This document shows, piece by piece, positions 1 through 38,600 of a stretch of DNA of 58,900 bases. The first letter of the stretch is position 1, and every line of letters starts with the position of its first letter. Where the stretch lies: the NCBI GenBank assembly GCA_041479965.1, contig JBGOZE010000001.1:1-58900 (forward strand), in the 5' to 3' direction. The position numbers and the translations under genes were made by a program. The notes under the pieces were generated by a model. That model saw only the letters and a program-made list of their open reading frames with translations. It had not been told where the DNA came from and did not search any database. The DNA comes from Candidatus Nanoarchaeia archaeon (lineage in GTDB: Archaea; Nanobdellota; Nanobdellia; Woesearchaeales; SM23-78).

Positions 1-1164
1 CACTCCTTCTCCTGTCTGGGGGTTCAGCCTCACATAATTATTAGGAGTGCAGCGAAGCCTCTGCAAGTCTCCTGAGACCCTTACATCCCCTATATAGACG
101 ATATTCAGGTTCTCATTGGTTACTCTGGCAGGGAAATAGGGGCTGCACATCTCGAGCATCCCTGGGTCATAAACCTGGCCTCCTCCAACATTCTTTATGT
201 GAATTTCAAATGTGGCCTGGCGAGGGCTATTCTCTTGATAGATATATGTCACAGCAACAGGAGCTCCTTGGCCCGCAGTTCCTGTGTAAGTCCTTGGAAT
301 GCAGACCTTTCGGTCCTCAGAATAGGGGGAAGGGTCAATGCACACCACAGGCGCAGCATATGTCGCGTAAAGGAAGCAATTGGTGATTAGGAAGCTCTGA
401 TAGGTATAGTCGAGGCCAGCAGGCCAGGTCACAATAGTACCATCAAAATTGATATAGTTCACTTCTCCGTTAGGATACTCGTAGGTGTCTCCTTCAAGAA
501 GATATTCTGTGCCAAAGTTCCTTGTGAAATCCAGGGCTGAAAACATAGATATTAAGAGCCTGCCGTGATTGGCATATTCAATGTCAATGCCCGGATTGTC
601 AAAACCGAAGCTCCATTGGTTCTGGTCTCCCAATCGCTCATAGTTGATGTCAACTCCTCCTATGAGCTGCCCCATCTCAAACCTGCCCCCGAGATTATTC
701 ACTCCTATATCAATGATTGAAAGGTCAGAGGAAGCTCCGACAAAATAATTGTCACAGCGCAGCGTGCCTCCGAACTGGCCAAAGCCAATGTTACCTATAT
801 CGATCTGGCATGCCCTGCCTGTACTCCGGATAGGATTAACTCCTTGGAACTGGATCATTGTAGGGTCATAGCCAGAGATGAATAAAGCTCCTCTGGCCCA
901 TGAAGAGCCTATGTTAGCCATCTCTACTTGCACATCAAAGGTGTTATCGTACTGGTCGCCGTAATAAAACATCTTGTAAGGAGGCACTCCAGGAACAAAA
1001 GCCATCTCAACTCCTTGGACTCCTTGATAGTAGATGTTGTTTTCCCAATCCAAATAACTATTGTTCCTTCCAGGAATCCTGCTGCAAGCTGAAAGCAGCA
1101 CAAGAACAAGGGATAATGATATGACTGCTAAGACTAAACCTCTTTTTTTCTTATTGACACTCAT
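1..1164 (-). CDS. Secreted lipobox protein, truncated by the left window edge (paralog of the 1257..2828 product)
   Basis: Absent from the ORF track because there is no stop in the window. ATG at 1164..1162 and the frame stays open to base 1 (388 codons, my own translation). The N-terminus MSVNKKKRGLVLAVISLSLVLVLLSAC has a basic n-region, a hydrophobic core and an L-S-A-C lipobox. It shares Y.G..G.EM.F...PP and GQGAPVA...I.N.G.G.V blocks with the neighbouring gene. Confidence 0.75.
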   Translation of the reverse strand, partial: MSVNKKKRGLVLAVISLSLVLVLLSACSRIPGRNNSYLDWENNIYYQGVQGVEMAFVPGVPPYKMFYYGDQYDNTFDVQVEMANIGSSWARGALFISGYDPTMIQFQGVNPIRSTGRACQIDIGNIGFGQFGGTLRCDNYFVGASSDLSIIDIGVNNLGGRFEMGQLIGGVDINYERLGDQNQWSFGFDNPGIDIEYANHGRLLISMFSALDFTRNFGTEYLLEGDTYEYPNGEVNYINFDGTIVTWPAGLDYTYQSFLITNCFLYATYAAPVVCIDPSPYSEDRKVCIPRTYTGTAGQGAPVAVTYIYQENSPRQATFEIHIKNVGGGQVYDPGMLEMCSPYFPARVTNENLNIVYIGDVRVSGDLQRLRCTPNNYVRLNPQTGEGV

Positions 1165-1256
1165 CTTCAGCTTCTCCTTGCAATTCTCCTTGATAAAGGA
1201 GTATATAAAGCTTTTCCTAAAATCGACTCATGTTAATTTAATTAAAATTAATTAAT

Positions 1257-2828
1257 TTAACCATTAGTTGCTGTGGTTGTGCAGGCACTGGTGCAGCTTG
1301 CAGCGTCAGCATAATTCTCAGCTAACAATGGGCAACATATCCTTCCTGACGCAGCTAGCTTGAAGCTAGCAGGGTCTGTGCCTGTTCCGCAAGCACAATC
1401 CCTGGTTGTGGCTATGCACTTGGAAGCAGAACTGGAAGAAGAACATTTAGGATAGCATTTACCATTGATCCTTACCGGAGCTGATGAGGTGCAGGCTGGC
1501 ATGCAGCAGTAGCTTGATCCAGGGCAGAAATTGCTGGTTGGAACACACAGCCCATCAGGGTAAAGGCCAATGCACTCTTGATAGCTACACTGGCAGGCAA
1601 AGCCTGCCTGAAGAGTGATTCTCAGATCCGGGTGAGAGGAATCTCTAGGCACCGCGCATCTGCCATCACTAGGGTCATATCTGGCGCAGTAATCACATTT
1701 AGCAATGCACCTAGTGACTCCATCAACAGGAGCCTCAATCTCATATGGCTGGCACGCAGAGCCTGTGGTTGTGGTGCTGCCCCCATATGGGTTCAATCTC
1801 TTGACTTTGATAGTCTTGGATGCAGAAGTTAGGTAGACATATGAGAGATTAATTGAAAGGAGAGCTGGATAATTCTGGTTGCCCAGTATCAGGTCCTCAT
1901 CTTTCACCATGCACCTGACAAAGCCTTCTCCATTGAACAATCTGACTGGCTGAGGAGTGCATTGCAATTCTTTTGTGCCAGAGAGAGCTGCTCTCACTCC
2001 AATGGTGTTGAAATCTTCCCTGTTAAGCTCCTGAAAAGCGCATGTTCGATCTAGATTAGGAGCATTAAGATAATTGGTGAGCACTGTTCCCGAACCTAAG
2101 TTCTGGATGTGAAGTGTAAACACAGGTCTAACCCTATTGCCAACAGGTTGGTTCTCAGTAGCTATGCCAACAATAGCTACAGGAGCTCCTTGGCCTCCTG
2201 AGAGAGAGAGGTCTTTTTGGGCGCATACCTGTTTTCTTAGGTTCTCTCCAAAAAGGTTGAAATCAACGCAAACAAGACCTGAAAATGAGGTCTGATAGGG
2301 ATAGCAAAGAGAGGCGAAGAGCTGAGTGTCCGGCTGCTCTCTCTGCCCCATGATGCTCTTAGTCTTGAAATTTGGGAAAGTGTAGAAAGTCTCATAGCCT
2401 GTAGGATAATAAATAGATTTGCCAGGCAACTGGATGCCTTTGAAATTAAAGCCATTCTTGGTGACAGAGATGGAGGTAGTGTTGGTAATCTCAATCAATT
2501 CAATATAGAAAGGGTCAAAGCTCAAGGATAAAATTCCGTGGCTGTCATCCATGACATTAACTGCGCCCCCGTTCTCTACCATTATCCCTGCACTGAAAGA
2601 GGAACCTTCATATATATCAGAAGGCGGAGCTTGGTCTAGGAATTTCATCTCCAGTCCTTTGGTGCCTACATAAAAATTAGGAGCATCAGGCGGATTGGTG
2701 ATGACGCAAGCTGAAATAAATATAGCTAATAATATCATCAGCAAGCATACAACTATTTGCAGAAGATTATTGCTTTTATCGAGATTAACCATTTTATTCC
2801 CTGACATTAATTGAGACGCTCTTTTCAA
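1257..2828 (-). CDS. Secreted lipobox protein with a Cys-rich C-terminal module (hypothetical)
   Basis: 523-aa ORF. N-terminal hydrophobic helix LLQIVVCLLMILLAIFISAC ends in an I-S-A-C lipobox. The last ~170 aa contain ~22 Cys by my manual count. An alternative ATG at 2792 (MVNLDK...) would remove the 35-nt overlap with the upstream gene. Colinear similarity to the partial gene at 1..1164. Confidence 0.7.
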   Translation of the reverse strand: MKRASQLMSGNKMVNLDKSNNLLQIVVCLLMILLAIFISACVITNPPDAPNFYVGTKGLEMKFLDQAPPSDIYEGSSFSAGIMVENGGAVNVMDDSHGILSLSFDPFYIELIEITNTTSISVTKNGFNFKGIQLPGKSIYYPTGYETFYTFPNFKTKSIMGQREQPDTQLFASLCYPYQTSFSGLVCVDFNLFGENLRKQVCAQKDLSLSGGQGAPVAIVGIATENQPVGNRVRPVFTLHIQNLGSGTVLTNYLNAPNLDRTCAFQELNREDFNTIGVRAALSGTKELQCTPQPVRLFNGEGFVRCMVKDEDLILGNQNYPALLSINLSYVYLTSASKTIKVKRLNPYGGSTTTTGSACQPYEIEAPVDGVTRCIAKCDYCARYDPSDGRCAVPRDSSHPDLRITLQAGFACQCSYQECIGLYPDGLCVPTSNFCPGSSYCCMPACTSSAPVRINGKCYPKCSSSSSASKCIATTRDCACGTGTDPASFKLAASGRICCPLLAENYADAASCTSACTTTATNG

Positions 2829-4284
2829 GCTTGTACTTGTACCTTACCATGCCTACAAAAGTCCTCTGGGCCTTCTGAGCTCCTGCGAGGAGTGTTCTTG
2901 GATCCTTGACATGGAGCCTGCATTCGACAGTATCAAAGTTAAGTCTCAAGTCTCCTAGCTTTTCCACATCAAAAGTATAGTTGGTATAGCCATCTCCAAC
3001 GCTTTTCTCTGGCTCGCCTCTGTTACATTTGACAAGGTCAAAATCATCAGGCACCATTATCATGAACAACAACGGCCTGTCAATCTTGCCTTCTGACCAA
3101 GAGTTCTGAATAGTCACCCCTAAGGGAGGCTCTCGCGTATTTCCTATGAGATCAATGCTGAAAGGCTGCTCAATATTAGGTGACATGCCAAGCATGACAG
3201 GACCAGGAGTATATATTGACTTGGGCTTGACAGGAATATTCAGTTTGCTATTGATGTTCTGTCCTGCCATCTCCATAGATCTCCTGACATCCATGTCCAC
3301 AAAGACATATTCCACATAGGCCCAGGTGTCAAAAGTGAATCCCCCGCCCACTTTAACAGAATAAGAGCCTTTGCTCAGGTTATCAAACTTACAATAGAAT
3401 ATGTCAGTCTCTGAACCAAAAATAGAAATCAATTGAGGGGTTGGCTCCCCTCTCGTCTTCTCATCGACATAGCAAGTCGGAGTGAAGATTATCTCTTTAG
3501 TAAAGCTTTTTCCTTGGATATCTGCGCGCACCTCAGCTGGTTGTCCCACGAAATTATACTGGTCAGCCTTCACATTCCTGAGATACAATCCAACAGGCGG
3601 CTTATCGTTGGTACCGTCAATCATCGAAGTGTAGTAAGGGATGCCTGTCATGTTCTCAAGACGACCAATACCAACATCTACTCCCTGAACTATTCTTTGC
3701 CAGATACCTACTGTCTTTTCAGTCAGGTAATTGAAGACTTCTCCTGCCTGCAAAAGCTCAGGCCTGCCCCCAATGTTGGTGAAAAATGATGGGTTCAGCT
3801 GAGTGCCCCAGAGGAAGATGAAGAAGAACAGGAGGAAGACAATCCAGAAGTTCACGTAATGATGGACGAAAGGAATCTCTGCCTTGATGCCAATATAGAT
3901 AGGCCAGACTGGGATGATAGCTAAAAAGAAGCTCACCCAACCTGCGAGTGTTGTTCCGCCAAAAACAGAGATGTTGGGCACAAGATAAAGGAAGAATGGG
4001 ACTGCAATGTAAAAAACAGATATGAGGACGAACTTGAAAATATCAAATGGCTGGACAAATCCTCCCTCTCCCTTGAAAAACAGGAAAGCAAGTGCCGCCA
4101 ATGTCAGATACATGACCACTGCTATTAAAAGGAAAGTTGTCCTGTCAAATCTTAAAAGAAAAACATCCACGAGTTGGACAGCTATGGACAGCAAGAATAA
4201 GAAGCGAAGATTATGAGGTGCTTCCCCAAAGGTATGCTCTTTTGCCTTGGTGACCAAGCTGCTCTCAGAAATGGATGGTGCCAT
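2794..4284 (-). CDS. Polytopic membrane protein with a large C-terminal ectodomain (hypothetical)
   Basis: 496-aa ORF. About 5 hydrophobic helices lie in the first ~190 aa (LRFLFLLSIAVQLVDVFLL, FLLIAVVMYLTLAALAFLFF, FVLISVFYIAVPFFLYLV, LAGWVSFFLAIIPVWPIYIGI, VNFWIVFLLFFFIFLWG). A ~300-aa beta-rich soluble region follows. No known family motif recognised. Confidence 0.7.
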   Translation of the reverse strand: MAPSISESSLVTKAKEHTFGEAPHNLRFLFLLSIAVQLVDVFLLRFDRTTFLLIAVVMYLTLAALAFLFFKGEGGFVQPFDIFKFVLISVFYIAVPFFLYLVPNISVFGGTTLAGWVSFFLAIIPVWPIYIGIKAEIPFVHHYVNFWIVFLLFFFIFLWGTQLNPSFFTNIGGRPELLQAGEVFNYLTEKTVGIWQRIVQGVDVGIGRLENMTGIPYYTSMIDGTNDKPPVGLYLRNVKADQYNFVGQPAEVRADIQGKSFTKEIIFTPTCYVDEKTRGEPTPQLISIFGSETDIFYCKFDNLSKGSYSVKVGGGFTFDTWAYVEYVFVDMDVRRSMEMAGQNINSKLNIPVKPKSIYTPGPVMLGMSPNIEQPFSIDLIGNTREPPLGVTIQNSWSEGKIDRPLLFMIMVPDDFDLVKCNRGEPEKSVGDGYTNYTFDVEKLGDLRLNFDTVECRLHVKDPRTLLAGAQKAQRTFVGMVRYKYKLEKSVSINVRE

Positions 4285-4427
4285 GGTTTCACGTATTTTT
4301 CAGCTCAACATACTATATATCTTCATAGTTTTGGCTCAAGCAAGTATTATCAAGTTCCTATCCGGTTTCTGTCCTTTTCCCTCTTTTTTGGATAGAGAAT
4401 GCCCCACTTGCCCAAATGCTTTAGTCA

Positions 4428-5618
4428 TCAAATAACATCTACTCGAAGCTCAGCCACGTCAATGGGGTCTGATTGAGGAGTCACTTTTATTGGGTTGGAG
4501 CCGATAGTGACAGACTCGGGGTCAATCTCGACCTGATAAAATAAATCGCGCGTGTCGAAGTAAGTCTTAAACCCGTTGATTTCAACAGTACCTCTCTTTT
4601 GGCTGCTGGCATCAGCAAATCTTAATGAAAGCAAAAGCCCTCTCTGGCCACTGTAAATCGCGCCATAGAGCTGAGCAGGCATAGTGAAATAAAAGACAGG
4701 TAAGGCTGTCTCTTTGAGCTTGACCACTAGCTTTGGCATGTCTATAAGGAAAGAGCCTGTGTTGGTAGTAGCAATTAAAGCATTATCTCCTAACTTAAGG
4801 AATTCGGGGCTGACCTCGATCTTGGTCTTGATGCCGCAGTCAGGGTAGCTGGTGAATATCGCCCTGTTATTTATCAGTATCTGCACCAATCCTTCTTCTT
4901 TAGGAGGGCAATCAGGCAGGAATTCAAATGTGCTTGACTCGAAATTCTCATACTCTCTCTGTGTAATGGAGAAGTGTTGTTCTGAGAAAGCTCCTGAATA
5001 ATCAGTCACTTTGGCTGATACAAGAAGGTTCTCGAGCACGTATTCGTTCACGCGCCAGAAAGCTGCTCCTGTGTCTGAAACAGAGAACACGAGACTGTTC
5101 TTCTGCTTAAGGAAATCTGCCGGAAGGCTTATGGGCGGGGGACTAGCATCTGTTATCTCGCCTTCATACAGCTCGTATTCGTTCAGCATGATGATGAGCC
5201 TGCCAGAATATTTCTTGACATTGAAAGACAGTTTCACATCCCCCATCGTCTTAGAGTCAAAGAAGAATATCACTTCTTCTGTCTTGCCGCCAAAAGCAGA
5301 GTTCTTCACGTAAAGAGAAGGAACTCTTTTCAGCTCATCAGCATTGGTGACTGTGAATACCATGAAAGAAGGCATGGTGTGCTCGACAGTATTGGAAGTG
5401 AAAGGGTAAATCCTTCCTGGGTTGACAGAAAACAGCACACTCCGAGATGTGGTTGTCCCGCTGCTTCCTCCAGTGCCCGAGGCGTCCTCTCCCAGCAAAG
5501 CAGCTCTTTCCTCTGGAGAGAGGAAAAGAATGTAAAAGACTATGAGCACTGCAATCAAGATGACCACAATGCCAGCCTGAGTAGCTGCTTGGCCCAGCTT
5601 AGATTTCCATCTAATCAT
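4428..5618 (-). CDS. Signal-anchored extracellular protein (hypothetical)
   Basis: 396-aa ORF. N-terminus MIRWKSKLGQAATQAGIVVILIAVLIVFYILFL forms a single TM, followed by a Gly/Ser/Thr linker and a ~340-aa domain. GGGGGT sits immediately upstream of the ATG. First gene of the minus-strand cluster. Confidence 0.7.
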   Translation of the reverse strand: MIRWKSKLGQAATQAGIVVILIAVLIVFYILFLSPEERAALLGEDASGTGGSSGTTTSRSVLFSVNPGRIYPFTSNTVEHTMPSFMVFTVTNADELKRVPSLYVKNSAFGGKTEEVIFFFDSKTMGDVKLSFNVKKYSGRLIIMLNEYELYEGEITDASPPPISLPADFLKQKNSLVFSVSDTGAAFWRVNEYVLENLLVSAKVTDYSGAFSEQHFSITQREYENFESSTFEFLPDCPPKEEGLVQILINNRAIFTSYPDCGIKTKIEVSPEFLKLGDNALIATTNTGSFLIDMPKLVVKLKETALPVFYFTMPAQLYGAIYSGQRGLLLSLRFADASSQKRGTVEINGFKTYFDTRDLFYQVEIDPESVTIGSNPIKVTPQSDPIDVAELRVDVI

Positions 5619-5768
5619 ACCCCCTTCTTAATAATCGACATATATAAATTTATTGGTTTTAATAACGAGAGTCAGAGAGAAGAGAATGTTAAAATTAGGG
5701 AAAAATCTCAAAACCATGAAAAACAACGAAAAATATTATATACTAACAAAAAATATCCTGGTGATAAG

Positions 5769-6818
5769 ATGCAAATAATCAAGAAGAACCTGAAACAGGG
5801 AGAAGTCACGGTCAAGGTCAATAATTCAGAGGACCTGTGGTTTCTCAATCAAGTAATTGAACCTAACGACCTTGTTAAAGGCAAGACTGAGAGGAAAATC
5901 AAGATCGGCAAAGAAGATGAAAGAAAGCAAAGCGTCGTCAGGAAGACTGTTTTCCTGGAAATATTAGTTGAGAAAAAAGAATTCCATAAATATTCAGACA
6001 ACCTGAGGATAGGCGGAGTGATAACCCAAGGACCAGAAGATGTTCCAAAGGGCAGCCACCACACCTTTGACATCGCAGCAGGAGACATCATCACTGTCAA
6101 GAAAGAGGAGTGGCTCAACTATCAGCTTGAGAAGCTGAAAGAGGCGAGCGAAACCATAAATACCAAAATAATTATGCTCATCTTCGATAGAGAAGAAGCG
6201 ACCTTTGCCATGCTCAAAAACCAGGGCTGTGAAATCCTGGCCAAAATCAAAGGAGAAGTGACAAAAAAAGCCATAGATGGCGCCGGAAAGGATTTTTACA
6301 AAGAGATAATTGAGAAACTCAGGGAATATGATAAAAGGTTTGAGCCCCCGAACATTGTTGTTGCGAGCCCTAGCTTTTGGAAAGAATACCTGATGAAAGA
6401 GATGCCCTTGGATCTCAAGGAAAAGATAACCTTGGCCACGTGCTCTGATGTTGAGGAGACTGCGATCAAAGAAGTTATGCAGAGACCTGAGCTGCTCAAG
6501 GTTTTGGAGCATGACAGAGCTGCCAAGGAACTCTGCATGATTGAGGCTGTGCTCAAAGCCATTTCCAAGGACGAAGCCTGCTATGGCTTCAAGGAATGCA
6601 AGGAAAAAATAGAGATTGGGGCAGTGAAAGAGCTTTTTGTTAGCTATGCATTCCTCAACAAGTCAAGAGAAGAGGGAAAACAAGCGCAGTCAGAAGAAGT
6701 GATGAAGCTGGCAGAGAAGACAGGCAGCCAAGTACACATCCTAAGCACAGAGGAAGCTAACCAGAAGCTTATGGGCCTAGGAGGAATGGCAGGGATTCTA
6801 AGATGGAAGATGCAATAG
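5769..6818 (+). CDS. pelA: Pelota (aPelota/Dom34), ribosome rescue and mRNA surveillance factor
   Basis: MQIIKKNLKQGEVTVKVNNSEDLWFLNQVIEPNDLVKGKTERKIK is a typical pelota N-terminus, and the C-terminal region is eRF1-like. GGTGAT Shine-Dalgarno precedes the ATG at 5769. The longer track ORF from 5379 overlaps the divergent gene and is rejected. Confidence 0.9.
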   Translation: MQIIKKNLKQGEVTVKVNNSEDLWFLNQVIEPNDLVKGKTERKIKIGKEDERKQSVVRKTVFLEILVEKKEFHKYSDNLRIGGVITQGPEDVPKGSHHTFDIAAGDIITVKKEEWLNYQLEKLKEASETINTKIIMLIFDREEATFAMLKNQGCEILAKIKGEVTKKAIDGAGKDFYKEIIEKLREYDKRFEPPNIVVASPSFWKEYLMKEMPLDLKEKITLATCSDVEETAIKEVMQRPELLKVLEHDRAAKELCMIEAVLKAISKDEACYGFKECKEKIEIGAVKELFVSYAFLNKSREEGKQAQSEEVMKLAEKTGSQVHILSTEEANQKLMGLGGMAGILRWKMQ

Positions 6819-14558: not shown

Positions 14559-15922
14559 CCAGTCATGAACTTTCTCATCATCGGGTTCATGTCCATCATG
14601 TGATGCTGGGCAATGTCCTCGTAAAGGCGATATACGATCATGACTGTAAGCAGTATTCCTGTTCCGGTTCCAAAGGCACCTGATATATCAGCAATCGCAG
14701 CGAGCAGCCCGACTGCCAAGCCGCCTAGCACTGTCAACGGCCAGATGTACCTGTTAAGCATCCTTTCAAGCACACGCACATCTTTCCTGAAGCCAGGAAT
14801 CTGAAGCCCTGAATTAATCATCTGATTGGCCTGAGACCTAGCATCAAGGCCAGAGGTTTGCACCCAAAAAATGCCGAATATCATGGCGCCTATCATCATA
14901 AAAGCAATATATATCAAGGCATGCCAGATGTCTGCTAAAGCCACGGAATGAGTTATGAGCTTGTTCAGTATCTGCGGCCCATAAAGCCATGATGCTAAGC
15001 CACTCACCGGTGTGTTGCCTGAAAATGTCCCCAAAATAGGATGCCCCCATTTGTACAACAGGCTTGCGAATAGTTGTACATTAGCTATGAGTGCAGCTAC
15101 AAGTATGACTGGAATGTTGCTGGTGTAGAAGAACTGCAAAGGCCATCTCACTCCATACCCTCTTACTCGTCCAAAACTAAGAGGCACTTCTACTCTCATA
15201 GCTTGGGCATATACTACTGCCATGAACACCACGATGGTAGCGACGATTGCCGCAAACATCAAACCCGCAGTCACAGGGTCTCCTGCGCTTAATGACTGAA
15301 TAAAGGCAGGCACTGCTCCTGTTGCCATTCCAGGGTTATTCGGGCTTGGAAGCGGATTGAATAACTTGATGAAGATGGTCTGAGATACTCCTGCTGCTAT
15401 GAACAGGCTTATTCCTGAGCCAAAGCCCCACTTGCTCACCACTTCATCCATGAACATTATCATTAATCCGCCAAGGAATAACTGGAAGATAAGTATGAAG
15501 GCAGATATGCCTTCAGAAGGCCTGAGCCCTCCCATCTGCACATAGATGAATCCTTCGAAGAATATGAAGAAGATGGACAACAACTTCTGTATTCCTTGGA
15601 ATCTTCTCTTTCCTTCGTGGCTTGTCAAATCAAATTTGACTAGGCCAGAGCCATTCAGCAACTGCAGAACGATTGAAGCTGTAACAATCGGGCCTATTCC
15701 GAGGCTTATGATGCTTCCGAAGCTTGCACCCAGGATGACGGAGAAGAATTCAAATTGGCGGAGAGCATTAGTCCCCAGTCCGTATAATGGGACCAACCCC
15801 AGGATAAAAAACAATATCAGAATTATGAGGGTCCATTTCAGTTTTTCCTTGAAAGCTAGCTTTTTCTGGGTCGGAGCCTGCACTTCTGGAAGATTGTAGA
15901 GTATGTTTTCAAAAAAACTCAT
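14555..15922 (-). CDS. secY: Preprotein translocase subunit SecY
   Basis: Ten-TM SecY pattern (FFSVILGASFGSIISLGIGPIVTASIVLQLL, MFMDEVVSKWGFGSGISLFIAAGV, YTSNIPVILVAALI). The ATG at 15922 is preceded by GGTGGTGAGAGG. The track ORF begins at a GTG at 15937. Confidence 0.95.
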   Translation of the reverse strand: MSFFENILYNLPEVQAPTQKKLAFKEKLKWTLIILILFFILGLVPLYGLGTNALRQFEFFSVILGASFGSIISLGIGPIVTASIVLQLLNGSGLVKFDLTSHEGKRRFQGIQKLLSIFFIFFEGFIYVQMGGLRPSEGISAFILIFQLFLGGLMIMFMDEVVSKWGFGSGISLFIAAGVSQTIFIKLFNPLPSPNNPGMATGAVPAFIQSLSAGDPVTAGLMFAAIVATIVVFMAVVYAQAMRVEVPLSFGRVRGYGVRWPLQFFYTSNIPVILVAALIANVQLFASLLYKWGHPILGTFSGNTPVSGLASWLYGPQILNKLITHSVALADIWHALIYIAFMMIGAMIFGIFWVQTSGLDARSQANQMINSGLQIPGFRKDVRVLERMLNRYIWPLTVLGGLAVGLLAAIADISGAFGTGTGILLTVMIVYRLYEDIAQHHMMDMNPMMRKFMTG

Positions 15923-15968
15923 TTGGCCTCTCACCACCCGTCTAGCTCAAAACAAAAAAAATTTCTCT

Positions 15969-16511
15969 TTACTTTGCTTTCTCTTCTTTCTCTTCTTCCT
16001 CGTCTTCGCCTTCCTCAGCTGCCTCTTCTTTCTTCTTTGGCTTTTCAGCTTTCTTCTTCTCTTTCTTGACAATGGTCTTCAAGACCTTTACTTCTCCACC
16101 TGCTTCCTTGATCTTTTCCACAGCATTCTTTGAAGCGAAGTCAGTGATAATGAAAAGCTTTTCCTTGACTTCTCCGGTGCCGAGCAGCTTATCGTAGCCT
16201 GCTTTTTTCAGCTCAAGCTCATAGCCCTTTGGGCCTTTGAAAGCAAATCCTTTCTCCACCCATTTAATGAGGTTAAAATTAATATCCTCAAGGTTAATAG
16301 CTTGCATCTTCATCCTGCTTTTAGATGTGAAGCCAAACCTGCCTGTGGGCTCTTTCCAGTAGCTAGGCTTTTTAGTGTCTGCTCTCTTACCAGTTCCTGC
16401 ACGCCCCCTGCCGCCACGGTTGCCAGCTCCTTTGTGATGGGATTGGCCTCTACCATAGCCATGATAGGTGCTTGCTCTTTTCTTGGTGACTTTTTTCTTT
16501 TTGAAACGCAT
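15969..16511 (-). CDS. rpl15: 50S ribosomal protein L15 (uL15) with an acidic/Lys-rich tail
   Basis: HGYGRGQSHHKGAGNRGGRGRAGTGKR is the uL15 signature. Confidence 0.93.
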   Translation of the reverse strand: MRFKKKKVTKKRASTYHGYGRGQSHHKGAGNRGGRGRAGTGKRADTKKPSYWKEPTGRFGFTSKSRMKMQAINLEDINFNLIKWVEKGFAFKGPKGYELELKKAGYDKLLGTGEVKEKLFIITDFASKNAVEKIKEAGGEVKVLKTIVKKEKKKAEKPKKKEEAAEEGEDEEEEKEEKAK

Positions 16512-16525
16512 AAAACATCAACTCT

Positions 16526-17047
16526 CTAAAGCATTCTCCTTATCAAATCATTTATCTTGGCTCCCCTATTGCCTAGTGCGCCTCCATTGCTAAAAGGTGT
16601 CTTGATTCCTTTCCTGTCAAAGCCTCCTCTGGGCGGGTGAAGGGCAAAGAATTTCTTTAATGAGCCATCCTCGTTCCTCTTCCCCCTCTTCTCCACCAGC
16701 AACTGGTAGGTTGCGTCATCAATCTCCCCGTAAGCTATATAATCCTTGCACTTAACAGCAGCAGCCCTGAGGCTTGGAGTGTCTGCTATGACTACACAAG
16801 TGTTTTTTTTCCTTAACCTCAAAGTGAAAAGAGTCCTTATGATATCTTCCTTTGCACGGATAACTCCTCTGATGAGTATCAAGGCGAGCCTCTTGCCGAG
16901 CTTTATCGCTGGTGTTCCAGGAGATGTTTTAGCAGGAACCTGAGTTGCAGCTAAAACTGAAGTGACGACAAGCTTTTTTGCGCCCGCATTCATAAGGCTC
17001 TTTCCAGCTTGTTCCTTTTTTTGTTCTGGTAAATTGTTATTCATCAT
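16526..17047 (-). CDS. rpl30: 50S ribosomal protein L30 (uL30)
   Basis: LALILIRGVIRAKEDIIRTLFTLRLRKKNTCVV...YIAYGEID matches L30P/L7. It has an N-terminal extension of about 40 aa. Confidence 0.9.
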   Translation of the reverse strand: MMNNNLPEQKKEQAGKSLMNAGAKKLVVTSVLAATQVPAKTSPGTPAIKLGKRLALILIRGVIRAKEDIIRTLFTLRLRKKNTCVVIADTPSLRAAAVKCKDYIAYGEIDDATYQLLVEKRGKRNEDGSLKKFFALHPPRGGFDRKGIKTPFSNGGALGNRGAKINDLIRRML

Positions 17048-17913
17048 AATGCCTCATTCTTTGCTTGTTTTGCATTTTCTTCAGACGACTCTTTTTCTGC
17101 GTTCTCTTTCTCACTTTGAACGCTGCCTTCTACAATGGCAAGAGTCTTTAAGTGCTCTGGTTGTATCTTGGTCTGCATCAATTTTCTCAAGGCGTCTTCG
17201 CAAGCATAAACAAAGTTGACTCTGTTCCTGGTCTGACCTCTGGTCTTGGTCCAGACGTCCTTGATTCCTGCGAGAGCAAGTACCTTGGCGATATCAGGTT
17301 CTGCGCATAATCCTTTTCCTTTTGGCGCAGGCATGAATTTTATCTCTACTGAGCCGCACTTACCGTACACATTGAAAGGTAATGAATGAGGTTTTCCGCA
17401 GTTGCACTGCCATGAGCCGCATCCTCTCCTGATCTTGAATATGTTGAGCTTGGCTTTCCTTATGGCCTTTTCTCTTGCAGGCACAGTCTCCTTTGATTTC
17501 CCAAGACCGAGCCCTATGTGCCCATTCCTGTCCCCTACAACTGCGAGGGCTGAGAATTTGGGCTTGTTGCCTTCCATGGTTTTTTTCTGGGTCTGACGGA
17601 ATATTCTCCTTGATCCGCCTCCAAACTTACCTTTGGACTGACCTATCATGAGGAAGTCTTGTTCCACGCTCAGCAGAGCATCAACAATCTCCGGCTCCAT
17701 TATCCTCAAGGAATTGTCCAATATCTCATCGATGCTTAGGATTTCCCTGTTCTTCACTTTACCTCCTAGCTCGGTCTTATTAGCCCAGGTTGAAAGGTCA
17801 ATTGGTTTCTGGGTTGTTGCTGCGCCTAGCGAAGCCTTTTTTGTGGCACGCTTAATCATCACTCTACCTTTAGGTGCTTCCTCTCTTGTTTTTCTTCTTT
17901 CCATAATCATCAA
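17044..17913 (-). CDS. rps5: 30S ribosomal protein S5 (uS5)
   Basis: VVGDRNGHIGLGLGKSKETVPAREKAIRKAK...GKCGSVEIKFMPAPKGKGL...GIKDVWTKTRGQTRN. Confidence 0.95.
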   Translation of the reverse strand: MMIMERRKTREEAPKGRVMIKRATKKASLGAATTQKPIDLSTWANKTELGGKVKNREILSIDEILDNSLRIMEPEIVDALLSVEQDFLMIGQSKGKFGGGSRRIFRQTQKKTMEGNKPKFSALAVVGDRNGHIGLGLGKSKETVPAREKAIRKAKLNIFKIRRGCGSWQCNCGKPHSLPFNVYGKCGSVEIKFMPAPKGKGLCAEPDIAKVLALAGIKDVWTKTRGQTRNRVNFVYACEDALRKLMQTKIQPEHLKTLAIVEGSVQSEKENAEKESSEENAKQAKNEAL

Positions 17914-29867: not shown

Positions 29868-31250
29868 TTATTCAGACTGCTCCTTGGCTTTTTTCTCTTT
29901 TTTCTTCTTTTGCGTCTTAGGTATCGGCCCGCTTTTTTCTTTTCTCTTGGCATACTGCAAAGGATTTTTTATCCTGCTGCACAGCTCATCAGGCTTGCAC
30001 ACAGAGTAGCTCTTGTAATAGCTAAGGTTGCTGCAATTAGGCGGAGGAAGTACTTTCTTGCTCTGACGCGCATACCTGATCTGCCCTAATATATATTGTG
30101 GCCTTAAGGGCTCAGGGTTCTTCTCATTCCATTCCAAAAGCCTCTTCTCCAAGAGGTCATAGTCCCATCCACAGCTTGCTAGGAAATTGACCAGGACAAA
30201 ACAGCTTCTCTTCCTTCCATCCTCCACTCCTGTAAGGATGGTCTTGATGCAGGGCGGAAAATTCTCCTCTCCAATGGCTTTTTCAGGCAGAGCATAATCC
30301 TGCTTGCCTCTTTTTCCTTCTCTAGCATCATCCTCATCCATCTCTTGCCAGCTGGCTTTTTGAGGGGCAAAATCAAATGCATTCCTAAGTAAGGTCTCAG
30401 CATCAGGATAATAGATGTTCCTAGCGAGGAAAGGATGGATCATTTTCACATTCTCAGGCTCTGCGTCTTTCTTCTCAAAACTGAGGATGTTGTTGATGTC
30501 AACCGGCACAGAAATCAGTTGGGATTTCTCATGAAAAGAATAAGGCATGCGATAGAGGTGCCTAGGAGCGATGAGCACAGTGTCAATCTCAAGGAAAGGA
30601 TCAACATTCAATTTGGGGATTTTGTCTCCGAATTCATTGGTCTCATAGCGCTTGATATCATCTTCCTTGAAGCCTGTCTTCTTCATGATGCTAGGAAAAT
30701 CATTCTTCTCAAGCCTCATGATATCATCAGCCAGAGGCTTACGGATGAGCTCGGCGATATACGCAGCGATCCTTCTCGGAGCCTCAGGGAATAGGTCGAC
30801 GATGCTGATTCCCCCCACACTCTTGGGAAAAGCCTCAAAGGGCACAGCAATATGAAATCCCTTGTTGCCTGAGAATTTTGCAGTAATCGACTTGACTCCG
30901 TTCTTTTTCAGGGCCTGAATAGTGTAGTGCGCAACAATCCTGCTGTATTCGAAGAACTTGCAGTCGATGTCCAGCAATAGGTCCCAACCCTTTCTGAGAG
31001 CATCCAGCTCTTCCTTGCGCAGCGTAGGACTTAGCTGCAATGGGTTCTTCCATAGCTCCTCAGAGCAATGGAAGCTGGTGACACGCTGTTTGGCCAGTTC
31101 GAGCACATCATTAGGATAGGCAAGCACTTCTGGCCTTTTACCAAAGATCTCGTCAAACCTAAAGGCAACTTCTTTGTCTTTAGCCTGCCTCACCAACTCT
31201 TCCTGGATGTCTTTCCTCTTGTAGAAAGATAAAGTCTTCGCTAGGAACAT
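29868..31250 (-). CDS. Fused DNA primase: PriS catalytic domain plus a PriL-like Fe-S C-terminal domain
   Basis: PriS motifs DLLLDIDCK (DxD), FSGNKGFHIAV (SGxGxH) and LYRMPYSFHEKS are followed by a PriL-CTD-like FPPCIKTIL...CFVLVNFLASCGW...PPPNCSNL...CKPDELC. ATG at 31250. The track ORF starts 20 codons upstream at a TTG. Confidence 0.8.
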   Translation of the reverse strand: MFLAKTLSFYKRKDIQEELVRQAKDKEVAFRFDEIFGKRPEVLAYPNDVLELAKQRVTSFHCSEELWKNPLQLSPTLRKEELDALRKGWDLLLDIDCKFFEYSRIVAHYTIQALKKNGVKSITAKFSGNKGFHIAVPFEAFPKSVGGISIVDLFPEAPRRIAAYIAELIRKPLADDIMRLEKNDFPSIMKKTGFKEDDIKRYETNEFGDKIPKLNVDPFLEIDTVLIAPRHLYRMPYSFHEKSQLISVPVDINNILSFEKKDAEPENVKMIHPFLARNIYYPDAETLLRNAFDFAPQKASWQEMDEDDAREGKRGKQDYALPEKAIGEENFPPCIKTILTGVEDGRKRSCFVLVNFLASCGWDYDLLEKRLLEWNEKNPEPLRPQYILGQIRYARQSKKVLPPPNCSNLSYYKSYSVCKPDELCSRIKNPLQYAKRKEKSGPIPKTQKKKKEKKAKEQSE

Positions 31251-31367
31251 GCTAATCGGGAGTTTTCCTGTGTTTTTAAAGAATGCTGTTTTTAATTGAC
31301 TAAAACACAATCAACTAAAACATTTATAAAATGCTACTTTCTTCCAAGCTAATACAAAACAAATTTC

Positions 31368-36603: not shown

Positions 36604-37776
36604 TCATCTGTAATCCAGGATTTTGCCTGGACTCAAGATGTTGTTGTAATCATATTCGTCTTTGAGCTTGATGAATTCCTTTTTTTTCTCCGGTGTCAGG
36701 AAATCTTTGTTTTTGAGCCCAAAGCCAAAAACATTTCCCAATGTTCCATCTATTCTTTTCACGAATGAGCGAAAAGTCTCCAGCAAGTCCTTATCTTTTT
36801 TCTGAAAATAAGCATAAAACACTCCTAGGCCTATATGCCCGTGAAGCCTCACATCATGCTTCTCGCACCATTCAATCAGGTCATAGCTTTTTTCCAGGCT
36901 CACAGTCGGGTCTTCCAAATAATAATATCCTTGGCTTCTTATGGCTGAGTGAACTGAGTCGAGTCTGTCAAGCATAGCCTTTACGTCCTGCACTGTCCTT
37001 ATCTTACCTTTCAACACATTATAGGCTACGAAAAGAGTATAGGTTGGCTCAAAGCTCAATTCCTGGCTTGTTTTCTTATCAATGAATTCCAGGGAAAAAA
37101 CCTCTTTGTCTCTTTTCAAATTTCTGGCCTGACCTAGCAGCTCAGAGAGCTGGTTTGAGCTGAAGATATCGACTGAAAGAGATGGTAAATCAGCTATTCT
37201 TAATTTGGCTTTGGTTATGAAGCCAGAAACCCCTTCTCTTCCAACAACTAGCTCTTTTTTTCGAGTATTGAAAGCTTTGCCTGTGCCATCTGCGAATTCA
37301 ACCTCTTCCACCCAAGCATCCATCCTCCCGACACTCTGGCTTTCCTTGCTCACGCAATTGAGGGAAACCATTCCTCCAATAGTCTGATCAGGATTCAGAG
37401 GGACAAGGGGAAATTGAACATTCAGTGCCCTAAGAGCGAGGTTCAAATCATATATCCTGATGCCTGCTTCCACCTCGATGAGCTTATTCTTAAGGTCGAG
37501 CTTGAGGACCTTGTTCATGCGCTCAGAAGAAAGAACAATTGCATTCTCTGCTATGCAACCGTCTGTCAGGCTTGTTCCTGAGCCACGCGAGACTACTGGA
37601 GTCCTGCCTTGATTTGCAAAGAGAAGCACTCTTCTCACCTGCTCCAGGTTTTTGGGCCAGATTATTGTGCTTGGTTTCAAGTGGATATCAGAGCAGCAAA
37701 AACCATATGCCTCTAAATCAAGAGGGTTTTCTGAAACATTCTCTGTTCCGACCATGTTTGCGAAGCGCTTATTCAT
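36604..37776 (-). CDS. FAD-binding oxidoreductase (GlcD / D-lactate dehydrogenase-like)
   Basis: FAD_binding_4-type PVVSRGSGTSLTDG. Size and position between the two GlcF-like halves fit. Confidence 0.75.
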   Translation of the reverse strand: MNKRFANMVGTENVSENPLDLEAYGFCCSDIHLKPSTIIWPKNLEQVRRVLLFANQGRTPVVSRGSGTSLTDGCIAENAIVLSSERMNKVLKLDLKNKLIEVEAGIRIYDLNLALRALNVQFPLVPLNPDQTIGGMVSLNCVSKESQSVGRMDAWVEEVEFADGTGKAFNTRKKELVVGREGVSGFITKAKLRIADLPSLSVDIFSSNQLSELLGQARNLKRDKEVFSLEFIDKKTSQELSFEPTYTLFVAYNVLKGKIRTVQDVKAMLDRLDSVHSAIRSQGYYYLEDPTVSLEKSYDLIEWCEKHDVRLHGHIGLGVFYAYFQKKDKDLLETFRSFVKRIDGTLGNVFGFGLKNKDFLTPEKKKEFIKLKDEYDYNNILSPGKILDYR

Positions 37777-37874
37777 ATCCGATAACTCTTATTTGATTGA
37801 CTCTGATGGGTTTACTCTGTTTTTTCTGTTTTTTCTATTGTTTCAATCTCTTTTTTCTTCTTTTTTCTTTTATC

Positions 37875-38600
37875 TCATGCATCTTGCATGTCTTGGTGCT
37901 CCACAAGGAGTTCTCCCAGTTCCAAGATGCATTTTTTGTTCTCAGCATTCTCCTTAAAATGAGCATAGCAATAGGGGCATGAAACAACTATCTTCTTGGC
38001 ACCTAGCTGTTGAAGCCTTTCTTTGGCTAGCTTGTTTGCGAGTTCAGGATAGTTCTGCTTGACACCACCACCGGCTCCACAGCAAAAAGTCTTTTCCTTT
38101 GTCTTGGCAGGCTCTATTGGCTTGAAACCAGTCTGCCTGATCAGAGCTCTGGGTTCGCTGACAAGGTTATACTGCCTTGCCAATATACAAGAATCGTGGT
38201 AAGCTACTTCTTCCTTGTGCTTGAAGGTGACTTTGTGCTTTTGAGCAGCCAATGTCTGCGTGATGTGCTCTGCTTCAATGCCATAGTGTTTTCTGAAGAC
38301 CTGAAGACAATGAGGACAGTTGGTTATTATCTTGCTGATGTTATTTTTTCGCAAGATCTCGAGGTTTTTGAGTTTTATTTCTTCAAAGTCCTGAAAATAG
38401 CCTGCATTTAGAAGAGGAGAACCACAGCAAGAGAGCTCTTCCAGTATCACAAAATTGATTCCGAAATCAGACAAGATGGCTTTGTAATTCTTAAATAAAT
38501 CAGGCAGCCCATAGGCAGTCATGCAACCAGGATAATAAAGAGCTTTTCCTCCTGCAATGCCTGATATTCTGGATTTTATTGTGTTTAAAAGATTGACCAT
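37875..38600 (-). CDS. CCG-domain (Fe-S) oxidoreductase (GlcF C-terminal / HdrD / LutA-like)
   Basis: Two Cys-rich CCG repeats: YYPGCMTAYG...CCGSPL...CPHC and YHDSCILAR...CCGAGGG...CPYC. Confidence 0.8.
   Translation of the reverse strand: MVNLLNTIKSRISGIAGGKALYYPGCMTAYGLPDLFKNYKAILSDFGINFVILEELSCCGSPLLNAGYFQDFEEIKLKNLEILRKNNISKIITNCPHCLQVFRKHYGIEAEHITQTLAAQKHKVTFKHKEEVAYHDSCILARQYNLVSEPRALIRQTGFKPIEPAKTKEKTFCCGAGGGVKQNYPELANKLAKERLQQLGAKKIVVSCPYCYAHFKENAENKKCILELGELLVEHQDMQDA

Follow-up and report, generated by a model that had tools for sequence, protein, structure and literature searches.

A pelota-linked gene cluster for membrane-anchored surface proteins of Woesearchaeota and its possible engagement of bacterial cell walls

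At the left end of a 58,900-nt stretch of DNA from a Candidatus Nanoarchaeia archaeon (positions 1–58,900 of contig JBGOZE010000001.1, assembly GCA_041479965.1; hereafter the window), four co-directional genes on the minus strand, designated g1 to g4, encode proteins that all bear secretion or membrane-anchoring signals. Judging from the synteny with related genomes, these genes are the first part of a set of five to six genes adjoining a divergently transcribed pelota gene, and the expected g5 genes would lie past the end of the contig. In other lineages, proteins of the same cluster carry peptidoglycan-hydrolase domains of four unrelated families, fused to either of two subunits. The reading that we tentatively prefer, as a plausible one, is that the cluster forms a surface platform close to the membrane that engages glycans or cell walls, its probable purpose being contact with bacterial murein.

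Results

Gene order conserved across species

The comparison covers the best 80 of 181 stretches matching the g1 alignment, with one genome taken per GTDB species; their open reading frames (ORFs) were classified by local hidden Markov models (HMMs) of the cluster proteins and pelota, called genes with precomputed Pfam matches being at hand for loci L003, L005, and L007 only. Nearly everywhere in these 80 species-level loci the same order is found, in which the divergent pelota gene is followed by g1, g2, and three or four paralogous lipoproteins, each with a lipobox. An ORF at the g2 position is present in 47 of the 48 loci with at least 7.5 kb of downstream DNA, 44 of the same 48 contain at least three lipoproteins (four lipoproteins in 6), and pelota is divergently adjacent in 50 of the 68 loci with upstream DNA. 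Where the g2 HMM failed, one large ORF of 570–1319 aa occupies the g2 position. The recurrence of this order in 80 species-level loci shows that the arrangement is not due to chance; the cluster is moreover present as a single copy at a fixed position.

In L003, the six genes divergent from pelota encode proteins of 395, 513, 507, 439, 334, and 344 aa, none of them with a Pfam match; the more distant loci L005 and L007 encode proteins of 559, 785, 523, 412, and 334 aa and of 568, 1168, 328, 391, and 329 aa, respectively. All-against-all BLAST showed the extra downstream genes to be additional g3 and g4 paralogs, every one of them with a lipobox. The original prediction, made from the letters of the window alone, had described a unit of four genes with two lipobox paralogs and was too narrow in this respect, since the relatives show five to six genes with three or four such paralogs. 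Its wider proposal of a dedicated envelope or surface complex agrees with the signals found on all four window proteins and with the gene order kept across species-level Woesearchaeota and Nanoarchaeota loci, together with the lack of any confident profile match and the purely generic nature (beta-sandwiches) of the structural matches described below; that the products physically assemble is what we infer.

Among close relatives, whose pelota is 61–84% identical to the reference, g1, g4, and g5 show 69–74% identity as compared with 68% for pelota, and g2 and g3 are less conserved (about 55%). In more distant relatives, identity drops to 26–37% for the surface proteins, with pelota at 41–47%.

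The taxonomic reach given here rests on the best 80 loci and on the best 150 representatives listed from a profile search with g1 over 1.84 billion cluster representatives, in which the g1 family comprised 1288 clusters (50% identity) at E ≤ 1e-3 and 536 at E ≤ 1e-30. Nearly all cluster loci are titled Woesearchaeota, Nanoarchaeota, or Nanoarchaeia, and those members of the g1-search clusters that were looked up carry the label 'hypothetical protein [Candidatus Woesearchaeota archaeon]' only. Many cluster contigs (L010, L018, L022, L026, and others) are titled 'uncultured Methanosarcinales archaeon', and L088 is titled 'Candidatus Binatia bacterium'; these titles are probably placeholder or mis-binned labels.

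Peptidoglycan-hydrolase domains fused to cluster proteins

The link with murein is provided by domain fusions that score above the Pfam gathering threshold in orthologs of the window proteins. An SLT domain (PF01464; cut-off, 21.3 bits) stands at the C-terminus of g2 in L071 (62.5 bits), L026 (44.1 bits), L046 (44.9 bits), and L073 (68.0 bits), with a weak match in the g2 of L007; in L069 (76.8 bits) and L080 (71.5 bits), it is the first lipoprotein that ends in this domain. A GH73 glucosaminidase domain is carried by the g2 of L076 (61 bits), an NlpC/P60 domain by that of L030 (52 bits), and a Peptidase_M23 domain by the g2-position protein of L022 (11659–14415 (+); 55.6 bits). The SLT motifs ES, GLMQ, and AYNxG and the NlpC/P60 motifs DCSG and GHV are intact. 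Pfam scans of 71 proteins from the g2 position and of 54 long sequences (lipoproteins and g1 proteins) revealed no other enzyme class. About 10 of the 80 lineages thus carry a muralytic domain from one of four unrelated families on this shared scaffold, attached to one or the other of two subunits, and it appears from their distribution that these domains were acquired independently and repeatedly by the g2-position protein or the first lipoprotein. A role in host contact, which the original prediction had considered conceivable, gains indirect support from these orthologous proteins of other lineages, not from the window proteins themselves.

As for murein synthesis by the archaeon itself, nothing in the window supports it; no mur genes are found there, and an ORF with a FAD_binding_4 domain is not MurB, as it is devoid of the MurB C-terminal domain. 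This FAD_binding_4 protein adjoins a Cys-rich protein with CCG domains (36604–38600 (−)), and we read the pair as a GlcD/GlcF-like glycolate or D-lactate oxidoreductase.

The g1 protein

The g1 protein begins with a basic motif, SKLGQ, and a hydrophobic helix with a YILFLSP motif, followed by a Gly/Ser/Thr linker and two jelly rolls; hydropathy shows only this one hydrophobic helix, in line with the single N-terminal transmembrane segment and ectodomain originally predicted. In the orthologs, basic residues, [GA]Q, and about eight small residues precede a hydrophobic helix ending in Y[IL]LF[LI]PP..R..LL. The motif [KR][GA]Q occurs in 54 of the 78 orthologs and a relaxed pattern in 74, and the window g1 carries K-L-G-Q at the candidate cleavage motif. 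We take the N-terminus as a candidate signal of class III (prepilin-like) or else as a signal anchor that stays uncleaved, prepilin-type processing being possible.

Such an N-terminus might mark g1 as an accessory of a type IV filament, processed by class III signal peptidase and incorporated into the pilus base or tip or into a bindosome-like structure, with the lipoproteins as further accessory components. The signal peptides of archaellins, pilins, and bindosome sugar-binding proteins do resemble its layout of a basic residue, [GA], and Q, followed by small residues and a hydrophobic helix, and type IV filament systems are encoded by DPANN archaea (bioRxiv 10.64898/2026.04.22.720090). However, the strict FlaFind-type pattern ([KRDE][GA][ALIFQMVED][ILMSTAV]x3 directly before the hydrophobic helix) is found in only 11 of the 78 g1 orthologs, and at 395–560 aa these are far above the size of filament-forming pilins. 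Moreover, the called genes of L003, L005, and L007 include no secretion ATPase, platform protein, or prepilin peptidase up to 10 kb from the cluster, and type IV filament families were absent from the window ORFs scanned, the scan covering part of the window ORFs. We regard a role in a filament as very unlikely.

The AlphaFold2 model of g1 (mean pLDDT, 84.7) consists of a helix at residues 12–31, the disordered Gly/Ser/Thr linker, and an all-beta region at residues 60–395 that forms the two jelly rolls. Foldseek searches of the PDB matched it with beta-sandwich domains of GH35 beta-galactosidases, reelin, the carbohydrate-binding domains of BcsB, and Cry toxin domains; the probability reached 1.0 for the GH35, reelin, and BcsB beta-sandwiches, with global TM-scores of only 0.15–0.23. 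On this model, the jelly rolls are predicted to have a galactose-binding-domain-like or carbohydrate-binding-module (CBM)-like fold. Sub-threshold Pfam matches point in the same direction, namely to BcsB (17.3 bits; cut-off, 21; E = 0.0017) and a GH2 galactose-binding-like domain in the long g1 ortholog of L056, and to the CBM-like PF14683 in one member of the set of long g1 and lipoprotein sequences.

It is worth comparing g1 with BcsB, to which it is similar in the repeated Foldseek matches (TM-scores, 0.19–0.23), the anchoring by a single helix, and the possession of two jelly rolls, which are carbohydrate-binding in BcsB and putatively so in g1. BcsB has a C-terminal anchor, two additional flavodoxin-like domains, and BcsA as its partner, whereas g1 is anchored N-terminally, and no synthase or glycosyltransferase gene is found nearby in L003, L005, and L007. 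Membership of g1 in the BcsB family was rejected in view of this N-terminal anchor and of the best Pfam score, which is below the cut-off and confined to one ortholog.

Two length classes, of about 395 and 560 aa, make up the g1 family. The longer form has a Cys-rich insert of about 170 aa ahead of the last jelly-roll strands (L005, 5960–7639; L007, 3519–5225; and about 17 other loci). The first searches yielded 68 homologs of g1, 25 of g2, and 71 of g3, and hhalign found nothing significant among these initial alignments; g1 remained without a significant relation to g2 and g3 with the broader alignments from the 80 loci. Sequence searches of the PDB with all three alignment profiles gave chance-level matches only.

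The g2 protein

About five to six hydrophobic segments lie within residues 26–161 of g2 and are followed by about 320 aa, consistent with the polytopic anchor of about five helices and the ectodomain that had been noticed in the window. The conserved C-terminal ectodomain extends over about 315 aa and contains four conserved Cys residues (C271, C298, C420, and C455). The transmembrane region is poorly conserved in sequence and helix number and so has the look of an anchor, not of a channel. The way in which Lys and Arg are distributed about five helices agrees with a predicted topology with the N-terminus inside and the C-terminus outside, and both the four conserved Cys residues and the fusion of extracellular enzymes to the orthologs agree with an external C-terminal domain. 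Comparison of the C-terminal 190 aa or so with the second domain of the lipoproteins by hhalign gave E = 1e-4 for the g5 class (probability, 57%; 161 columns), and the g2 C-terminus compared with the g3 class gave E = 2e-3; the g2 ectodomain may thus be related, tentatively, to the second lipoprotein domain.

The lipoproteins

The hydrophobic segments of g3 and g4 end in ...LLAIFISAC (C34) and ...LVLLSAC (C27), respectively, as expected from the lipoboxes originally read in both. The motif [LVIFMA][ASTVIGL][GASC]C after a hydrophobic core is present in 179 of the 194 lipoproteins of the clusters, the other 15 being one-residue variants that keep the Cys, at which g3 and g4 are predicted to be lipidated. 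Predicted lipoproteins are reported to be prevalent in DPANN archaea, and the candidate lipidation enzyme AliA reportedly occurs in the superphylum with some gaps (PMC12462473). The AliA/AliB-dependent lipoproteins of Haloferax volcanii (PMC12462473) likewise have a basic n-region, a hydrophobic core, and, within about 40 residues, [LVI][ASTVI][GAS]C, which are also found in g3, g4, and their paralogs; that class is, however, defined by its signal, the mature two-sandwich domain of the cluster lipoproteins being without a characterised relative and their lipidation a prediction.

In a BLASTP alignment (E = 6e-11; 28% identity over 177 aa), g3 and g4 share the blocks that had been singled out by eye, GQGAPVA(I/V), I.N.G.G.V, and Y.G..G.EM.F....PP. 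The window g4 is 64% identical to the complete 439-aa g4 of L003. Full-length homology links the three lipoprotein classes, with hhalign E values of 2.7e-30 to 3.6e-68 (the latter for g4 versus the g3 class). Taken with the link to g2, the common module implies that each cluster encodes three to four, perhaps five, module-sharing proteins in a fixed order.

All 71 homologs of g3 are 'hypothetical proteins' of Woesearchaeota and Nanoarchaeota metagenome-assembled genomes. Its AlphaFold2 model, based on their 71-sequence alignment (mean pLDDT, 91.5), shows an N-terminal helix and beta-sandwiches at about residues 50–200 and 205–336. Foldseek matches in the PDB were generic tandem Ig-like domains only (integrin alpha legs, AgI/II and PrgB adhesins, and Gram-positive pilins), the best having probabilities up to 1.0 with TM-scores of 0.13–0.18 and identities of 7–12%, and matches to viral models were equally generic, being limited to a DUF11 protein and tail-protein sandwiches. 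With such tandem Ig-like proteins, including those with DUF11 or CARDB domains, g3 thus shares the generic beta-sandwich block only, one that is characteristic of adhesins and of surface layers, and it has no Pfam match to the CARDB, DUF11, Big, or Cna families. The linkers of the lipoproteins are short and would place the domains next to the membrane, to judge from the sequences.

Several known families were considered for these proteins and set aside. A CARDB-only adhesin was ruled out on grounds of fold and profile. An ABC substrate-binding protein, with its two-lobed alpha/beta fold, does not fit the all-beta models of g1 and g3, and neither a permease nor an ATPase is encoded in the cluster in L003, L005, and L007. 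For known S-layer families, there is no Pfam or NCBIfam match, and no S-layer entry appears among the top 50 g3 Foldseek matches in the PDB. With Pfam and NCBIfam, g1–g4 are without a match at the curated cut-off, and with Pfam they have none even at E ≤ 1. The original statement that no family is recognisable therefore stands at the level of sequence, whereas the folds can be recognised as tandem Ig-like sandwiches and CBM-like jelly rolls.

The C-terminal module of g3, whose 22 Cys residues in the last 172 aa had been pointed out approximately before, is modeled with pLDDT above 90 and with little regular secondary structure. It sits in a variable C-terminal slot, the SLT domain being found at the equivalent position in L069 and L080. 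The profile of this tail finds only g3-type proteins, in 26 ORFs (duplicate assemblies included), and the insert of the long g1 form is not homologous to it (hhalign E = 0.46), so that a mobile Cys-rich module common to the cluster was discarded. Elsewhere in the window, an ORF of 1423 aa (54041–58312 (+)) with an N-terminal hydrophobic signal and 103 Cys residues (7.2%), rich in Ser, Gly, Thr, and Asn and without a Pfam match, is predicted to be a further large secreted Cys-rich protein of the same genome.

Organization of the window and its surroundings

The coordinates of the cluster features are collected in Table 1. The ORF list (g1 to g3) and the six-frame translation (g4) together contain the four co-directional genes with the gaps noted originally, 143 nt between g1 and g2 (4285–4427) and 92 nt between g3 and g4 (1165–1256). 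The g2–g3 junction depends on the start of g3, for which the candidates are TTG 2828 (523 aa; 35-nt overlap), ATG 2807 (516 aa, the JGI call; 14-nt overlap), and ATG 2792 (511 aa, the NCBI call; 1-nt gap). The g4 product begins with MSVNKKKRGLVLAVISLSLVLVLLSAC... and leaves the window after 388 aa, as found by six-frame translation of the left end, where the gene had been expected to run off. The JGI, Logan, and NCBI (GCA_041490125.1) versions of the contig (L001, L002, and L089) all end at most 21 nt from the window edge, inside g4, and for this reason g4 cannot be completed leftwards; the stop point shared by three assemblies suggests a repeat or strain-variable region just downstream, breaking short-read assembly.

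Table 1 Features of the cluster and its divergent neighbour in the window
Feature	Positions	Strand	Description	Basis
g1	4428–5618	−	396 aa	ORF list
g2	2794–4284	−	496 aa	ORF list
g3	1257–2807	−	516 aa from ATG 2807; first lipobox lipoprotein	ORF list
g4	1–1164	−	Second lipobox lipoprotein paralog; 388 of ~440 aa inside the window	
g1 signal/anchor	5520–5618	−	aa 1–33; [KR][GA]Q, small residues, hydrophobic helix (candidate)	78 ortholog N-termini
g3 lipobox	2706–2717	−	I31-S32-A33-C34; C34 nearly invariant	71-sequence alignment
g3 Cys-rich module	1260–1775	−	aa 345–516, 22 Cys; 8 Cys in aa 1–344	
g4 lipobox	1084–1095	−	L24-S25-A26-C27	Sequence and family statistics
g1–pelota divergent intergenic region	5619–5768		150 nt; TATA-like box aaatttatatat ~25–35 nt upstream of the g1 ATG	
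pelota (aRF1-like)	5769–6818	+	Divergent neighbour; Pfam Pelota_N, eRF1_2, eRF1_3	Called gene

The genes g1, g2, and g4 are preceded by AT-rich, TATA-like boxes, those ahead of g2 and g4 (atatatag and ctttatatac) being accompanied by purine-rich ribosome-binding-like stretches, and within the window cluster only g2 and g3 are tightly coupled. Given these boxes, the window genes may be transcribed from several promoters instead of as a single operon. Separate promoters would also be compatible with a mere juxtaposition of unrelated secreted proteins that form no functional unit. Yet the gene order is kept across species at about 25–35% protein identity and the order of the paralogs is fixed, g2 may share a domain with the lipoproteins, and the same kind of effector is found on g2 or the first lipoprotein in different lineages; the synteny effectively excludes such a juxtaposition, which we consider hardly credible.

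The pelota gene is a synteny landmark outside the system proper. A plus-strand ORF of 479 aa (5379–6818) that extends over the start of g1 is an over-extended pelota, the true start of which is at about 5769 (MQIIKKNLKQ...).

Downstream of the six-gene cluster of L003, there are small genes without Pfam matches (15252–17467 (+)), two of whose products (142 and 133 aa) are secreted, low-complexity proteins rich in Tyr, Gly, and Asn. A gene for the replication factor C small subunit follows a few kilobases downstream of the cluster in L005 (16870–17826), L007 (12545–13525), and L003 (18143–19111), as does a PRC-barrel gene in L005 and L007. From the recurrence of these two genes in distant genomes, the surroundings of the cluster as a whole seem to form an ancient and stable core region.

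Elsewhere in the window, the fused primase mentioned in the original prediction was recovered as one 480-aa ORF joining the small- and large-subunit domains of DNA primase (29868–31310 (−)). Rfam and tRNA scans of the window found nothing.

Discussion

In the architecture that we propose, the N-terminal, perhaps prepilin-like, helix of g1 would hold two CBM-like jelly rolls on a flexible Gly/Ser/Thr tether, and g2 would display, on about five transmembrane helices, an ectodomain that resembles, in its C-terminal half, domain 2 of the lipoproteins. The three to four paralogous lipoproteins, lipid-anchored through a short linker, would each contribute two Ig-like beta-sandwiches. Lineage-specific effector modules would occupy the variable slot at the C-terminus of g2 or of the first lipoprotein, namely the 22-Cys module in the window organism and a muralytic domain in roughly one lineage in eight. 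We speculate that the assembled platform binds glycans of a partner-cell envelope, most likely bacterial peptidoglycan, with g1 serving as the glycan-binding arm and g2 and the lipoproteins as the scaffold, and that, where an enzyme is present, local cleavage of the wall would lead to tight contact or scavenging. The cluster proteins may thus grip or open bacterial cells, and the hydrolase-free version encoded in the window may do the same job.

Muralytic proteins have been reported previously from these archaea. Castelle et al. (2021) described 51 families, most of them uncharacterised, that make up a module peculiar to Woesearchaeota and Pacearchaeota, and drew attention to one family of large extracellular SLT proteins that might attach to bacterial walls and degrade them (PMC8204110); Vigneron et al. 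(2022) found GH23 genes in Woesearchaeota and proposed a predatory lifestyle (PMC9723730); and Strock et al. (2025) reported peptidoglycan-hydrolase homologs to be prominent in Nanoarchaeota (PMC12352652). The SLT (GH23) proteins of Woesearchaeota and Pacearchaeota (PMC8204110, PMC9723730) are similar to the present system in being extracellular, in belonging to the same phylum-level group, in the SLT domain carried by some cluster orthologs, and in the role proposed for them at the wall. They are, however, described as single large proteins (up to about 3000 aa) and not as a pelota-linked module, and the window proteins are without SLT. A literature search found no paper on the g1–g2–lipoprotein cluster or its link with pelota, an absence that applies to the literature searched and is not proof.

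Several points weigh against the engagement of murein. The hydrolases occur in only about 10 of the 80 lineages, so that the link with murein is extrapolated from a minority, and g1–g4 of the window have no hydrolase domain in Pfam searches even at E ≤ 1. The M23 domain of L022 is devoid of the catalytic, zinc-binding His motifs (HxxxD and HxH) and may be a degenerate, non-catalytic domain of the LytM type. The Foldseek matches are at the level of the fold only (TM-scores, 0.15–0.23). The short linkers of the lipoproteins keep the proteins near the archaeon's own membrane, where an S-layer, if there is one, would restrict how far they extend; expression of 'S-layer protein genes' has been reported for Woesearchaeota (PMC11606122). 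Methanogens, which are devoid of murein, have also been proposed as partners of Woesearchaeota, a view cited by Vigneron et al. (PMC9723730). Lastly, the pelota-level conservation and the fixed single-copy position fit a housekeeping structure of the envelope at least as well as a device for recognising a host.

This last point leads to the main rival of the murein platform, in which the cluster would be a housekeeping scaffold, forming the archaeon's own membrane-proximal coat or the anchor layer of an S-layer, comparable in function to an S-layer stalk or a pseudo-periplasmic scaffold, with the hydrolases merely parked on an abundant platform. Such a scaffold would be expected to be single-copy and near-universal, fixed beside pelota and conserved like pelota among close relatives, as the module is; the domains lie beside the membrane, most lineages are without any enzyme domain, and the g3 model is all-beta and Ig-like. 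An all-beta Ig-like build is also found in several archaeal S-layer proteins. Nevertheless, no match to an S-layer family was obtained, the PDB profile search giving only a chance-level hit to SlaA (E = 1.2), and murein is the target of every enzyme accreted, although the archaeon is not known to synthesise it, mur genes being absent from the window. In addition, S-layers are usually built of one or two proteins, not five or six (PMC5744192), and the S-layer genes that are separately annotated in Woesearchaeota are reportedly among the most highly expressed (PMC11606122). Taking both sides together, we consider the scaffold somewhat unlikely.

The hydrolase fusions and the CBM-like fold of g1 could also be explained by nutrient capture in the manner of Sus systems, with the lipoproteins and g1 binding free polysaccharide or muropeptide debris and the fused hydrolases trimming it for uptake through transporters whose genes lie elsewhere, without any partner cell. 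SusE and SusF of Bacteroidota are lipid-anchored tandem beta-sandwich proteins like the cluster lipoproteins, and both systems have paralogs encoded side by side and, here in some lineages, a glycan-cleaving enzyme in the same cluster, which recalls the SusE/SusF/SusG logic. DPANN archaea, furthermore, depend on scavenged building blocks (PMC8204110). Contrary to this explanation, the cluster has neither a sequence match nor a specific structural match to SusE/SusF, and no transporter, SusC/D-like protein, or ATPase is encoded in or next to it in L003, L005, and L007; it belongs to an archaeon with a single membrane, the transmembrane region of g2 is anchor-like, and most lineages are without an enzyme. 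Loci for nutrient capture tend to be variable and to occur in several copies, whereas the present one is fixed and single. Nutrient capture thus seems quite unlikely, and the murein-engaging platform is the reading that we retain.

A bolder version of the murein-engaging platform, which we consider unlikely in its full form, would make the module the core host-docking machine of Woesearchaeota, in which a hetero-oligomer of a CBM-like subunit, a polytopic anchor, and three to four lipid-anchored Ig-like paralogs would clamp the membrane of the archaeon onto bacterial peptidoglycan and open the wall by means of exchangeable C-terminal effector modules. If this were true, bacteria, not archaea, would be the usual partners of Woesearchaeota, and the cluster would represent a previously unrecognised class of inter-domain attachment apparatus.

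Altogether, three sizeable families without a Pfam or NCBIfam model, g1, g2, and the two-sandwich lipoproteins, are now defined, and the cluster supplies both proteins for work on murein binding and a genomic marker by which lineages that have muralytic modules can be compared with those that have none. Few uncultivated archaea are as widespread as Woesearchaeota, and for the machinery at the interface with their partners this cluster makes a good candidate because it is conserved as a single copy, its g1 is found in more than 500 clusters worldwide, and four hydrolase families have repeatedly been grafted onto it.

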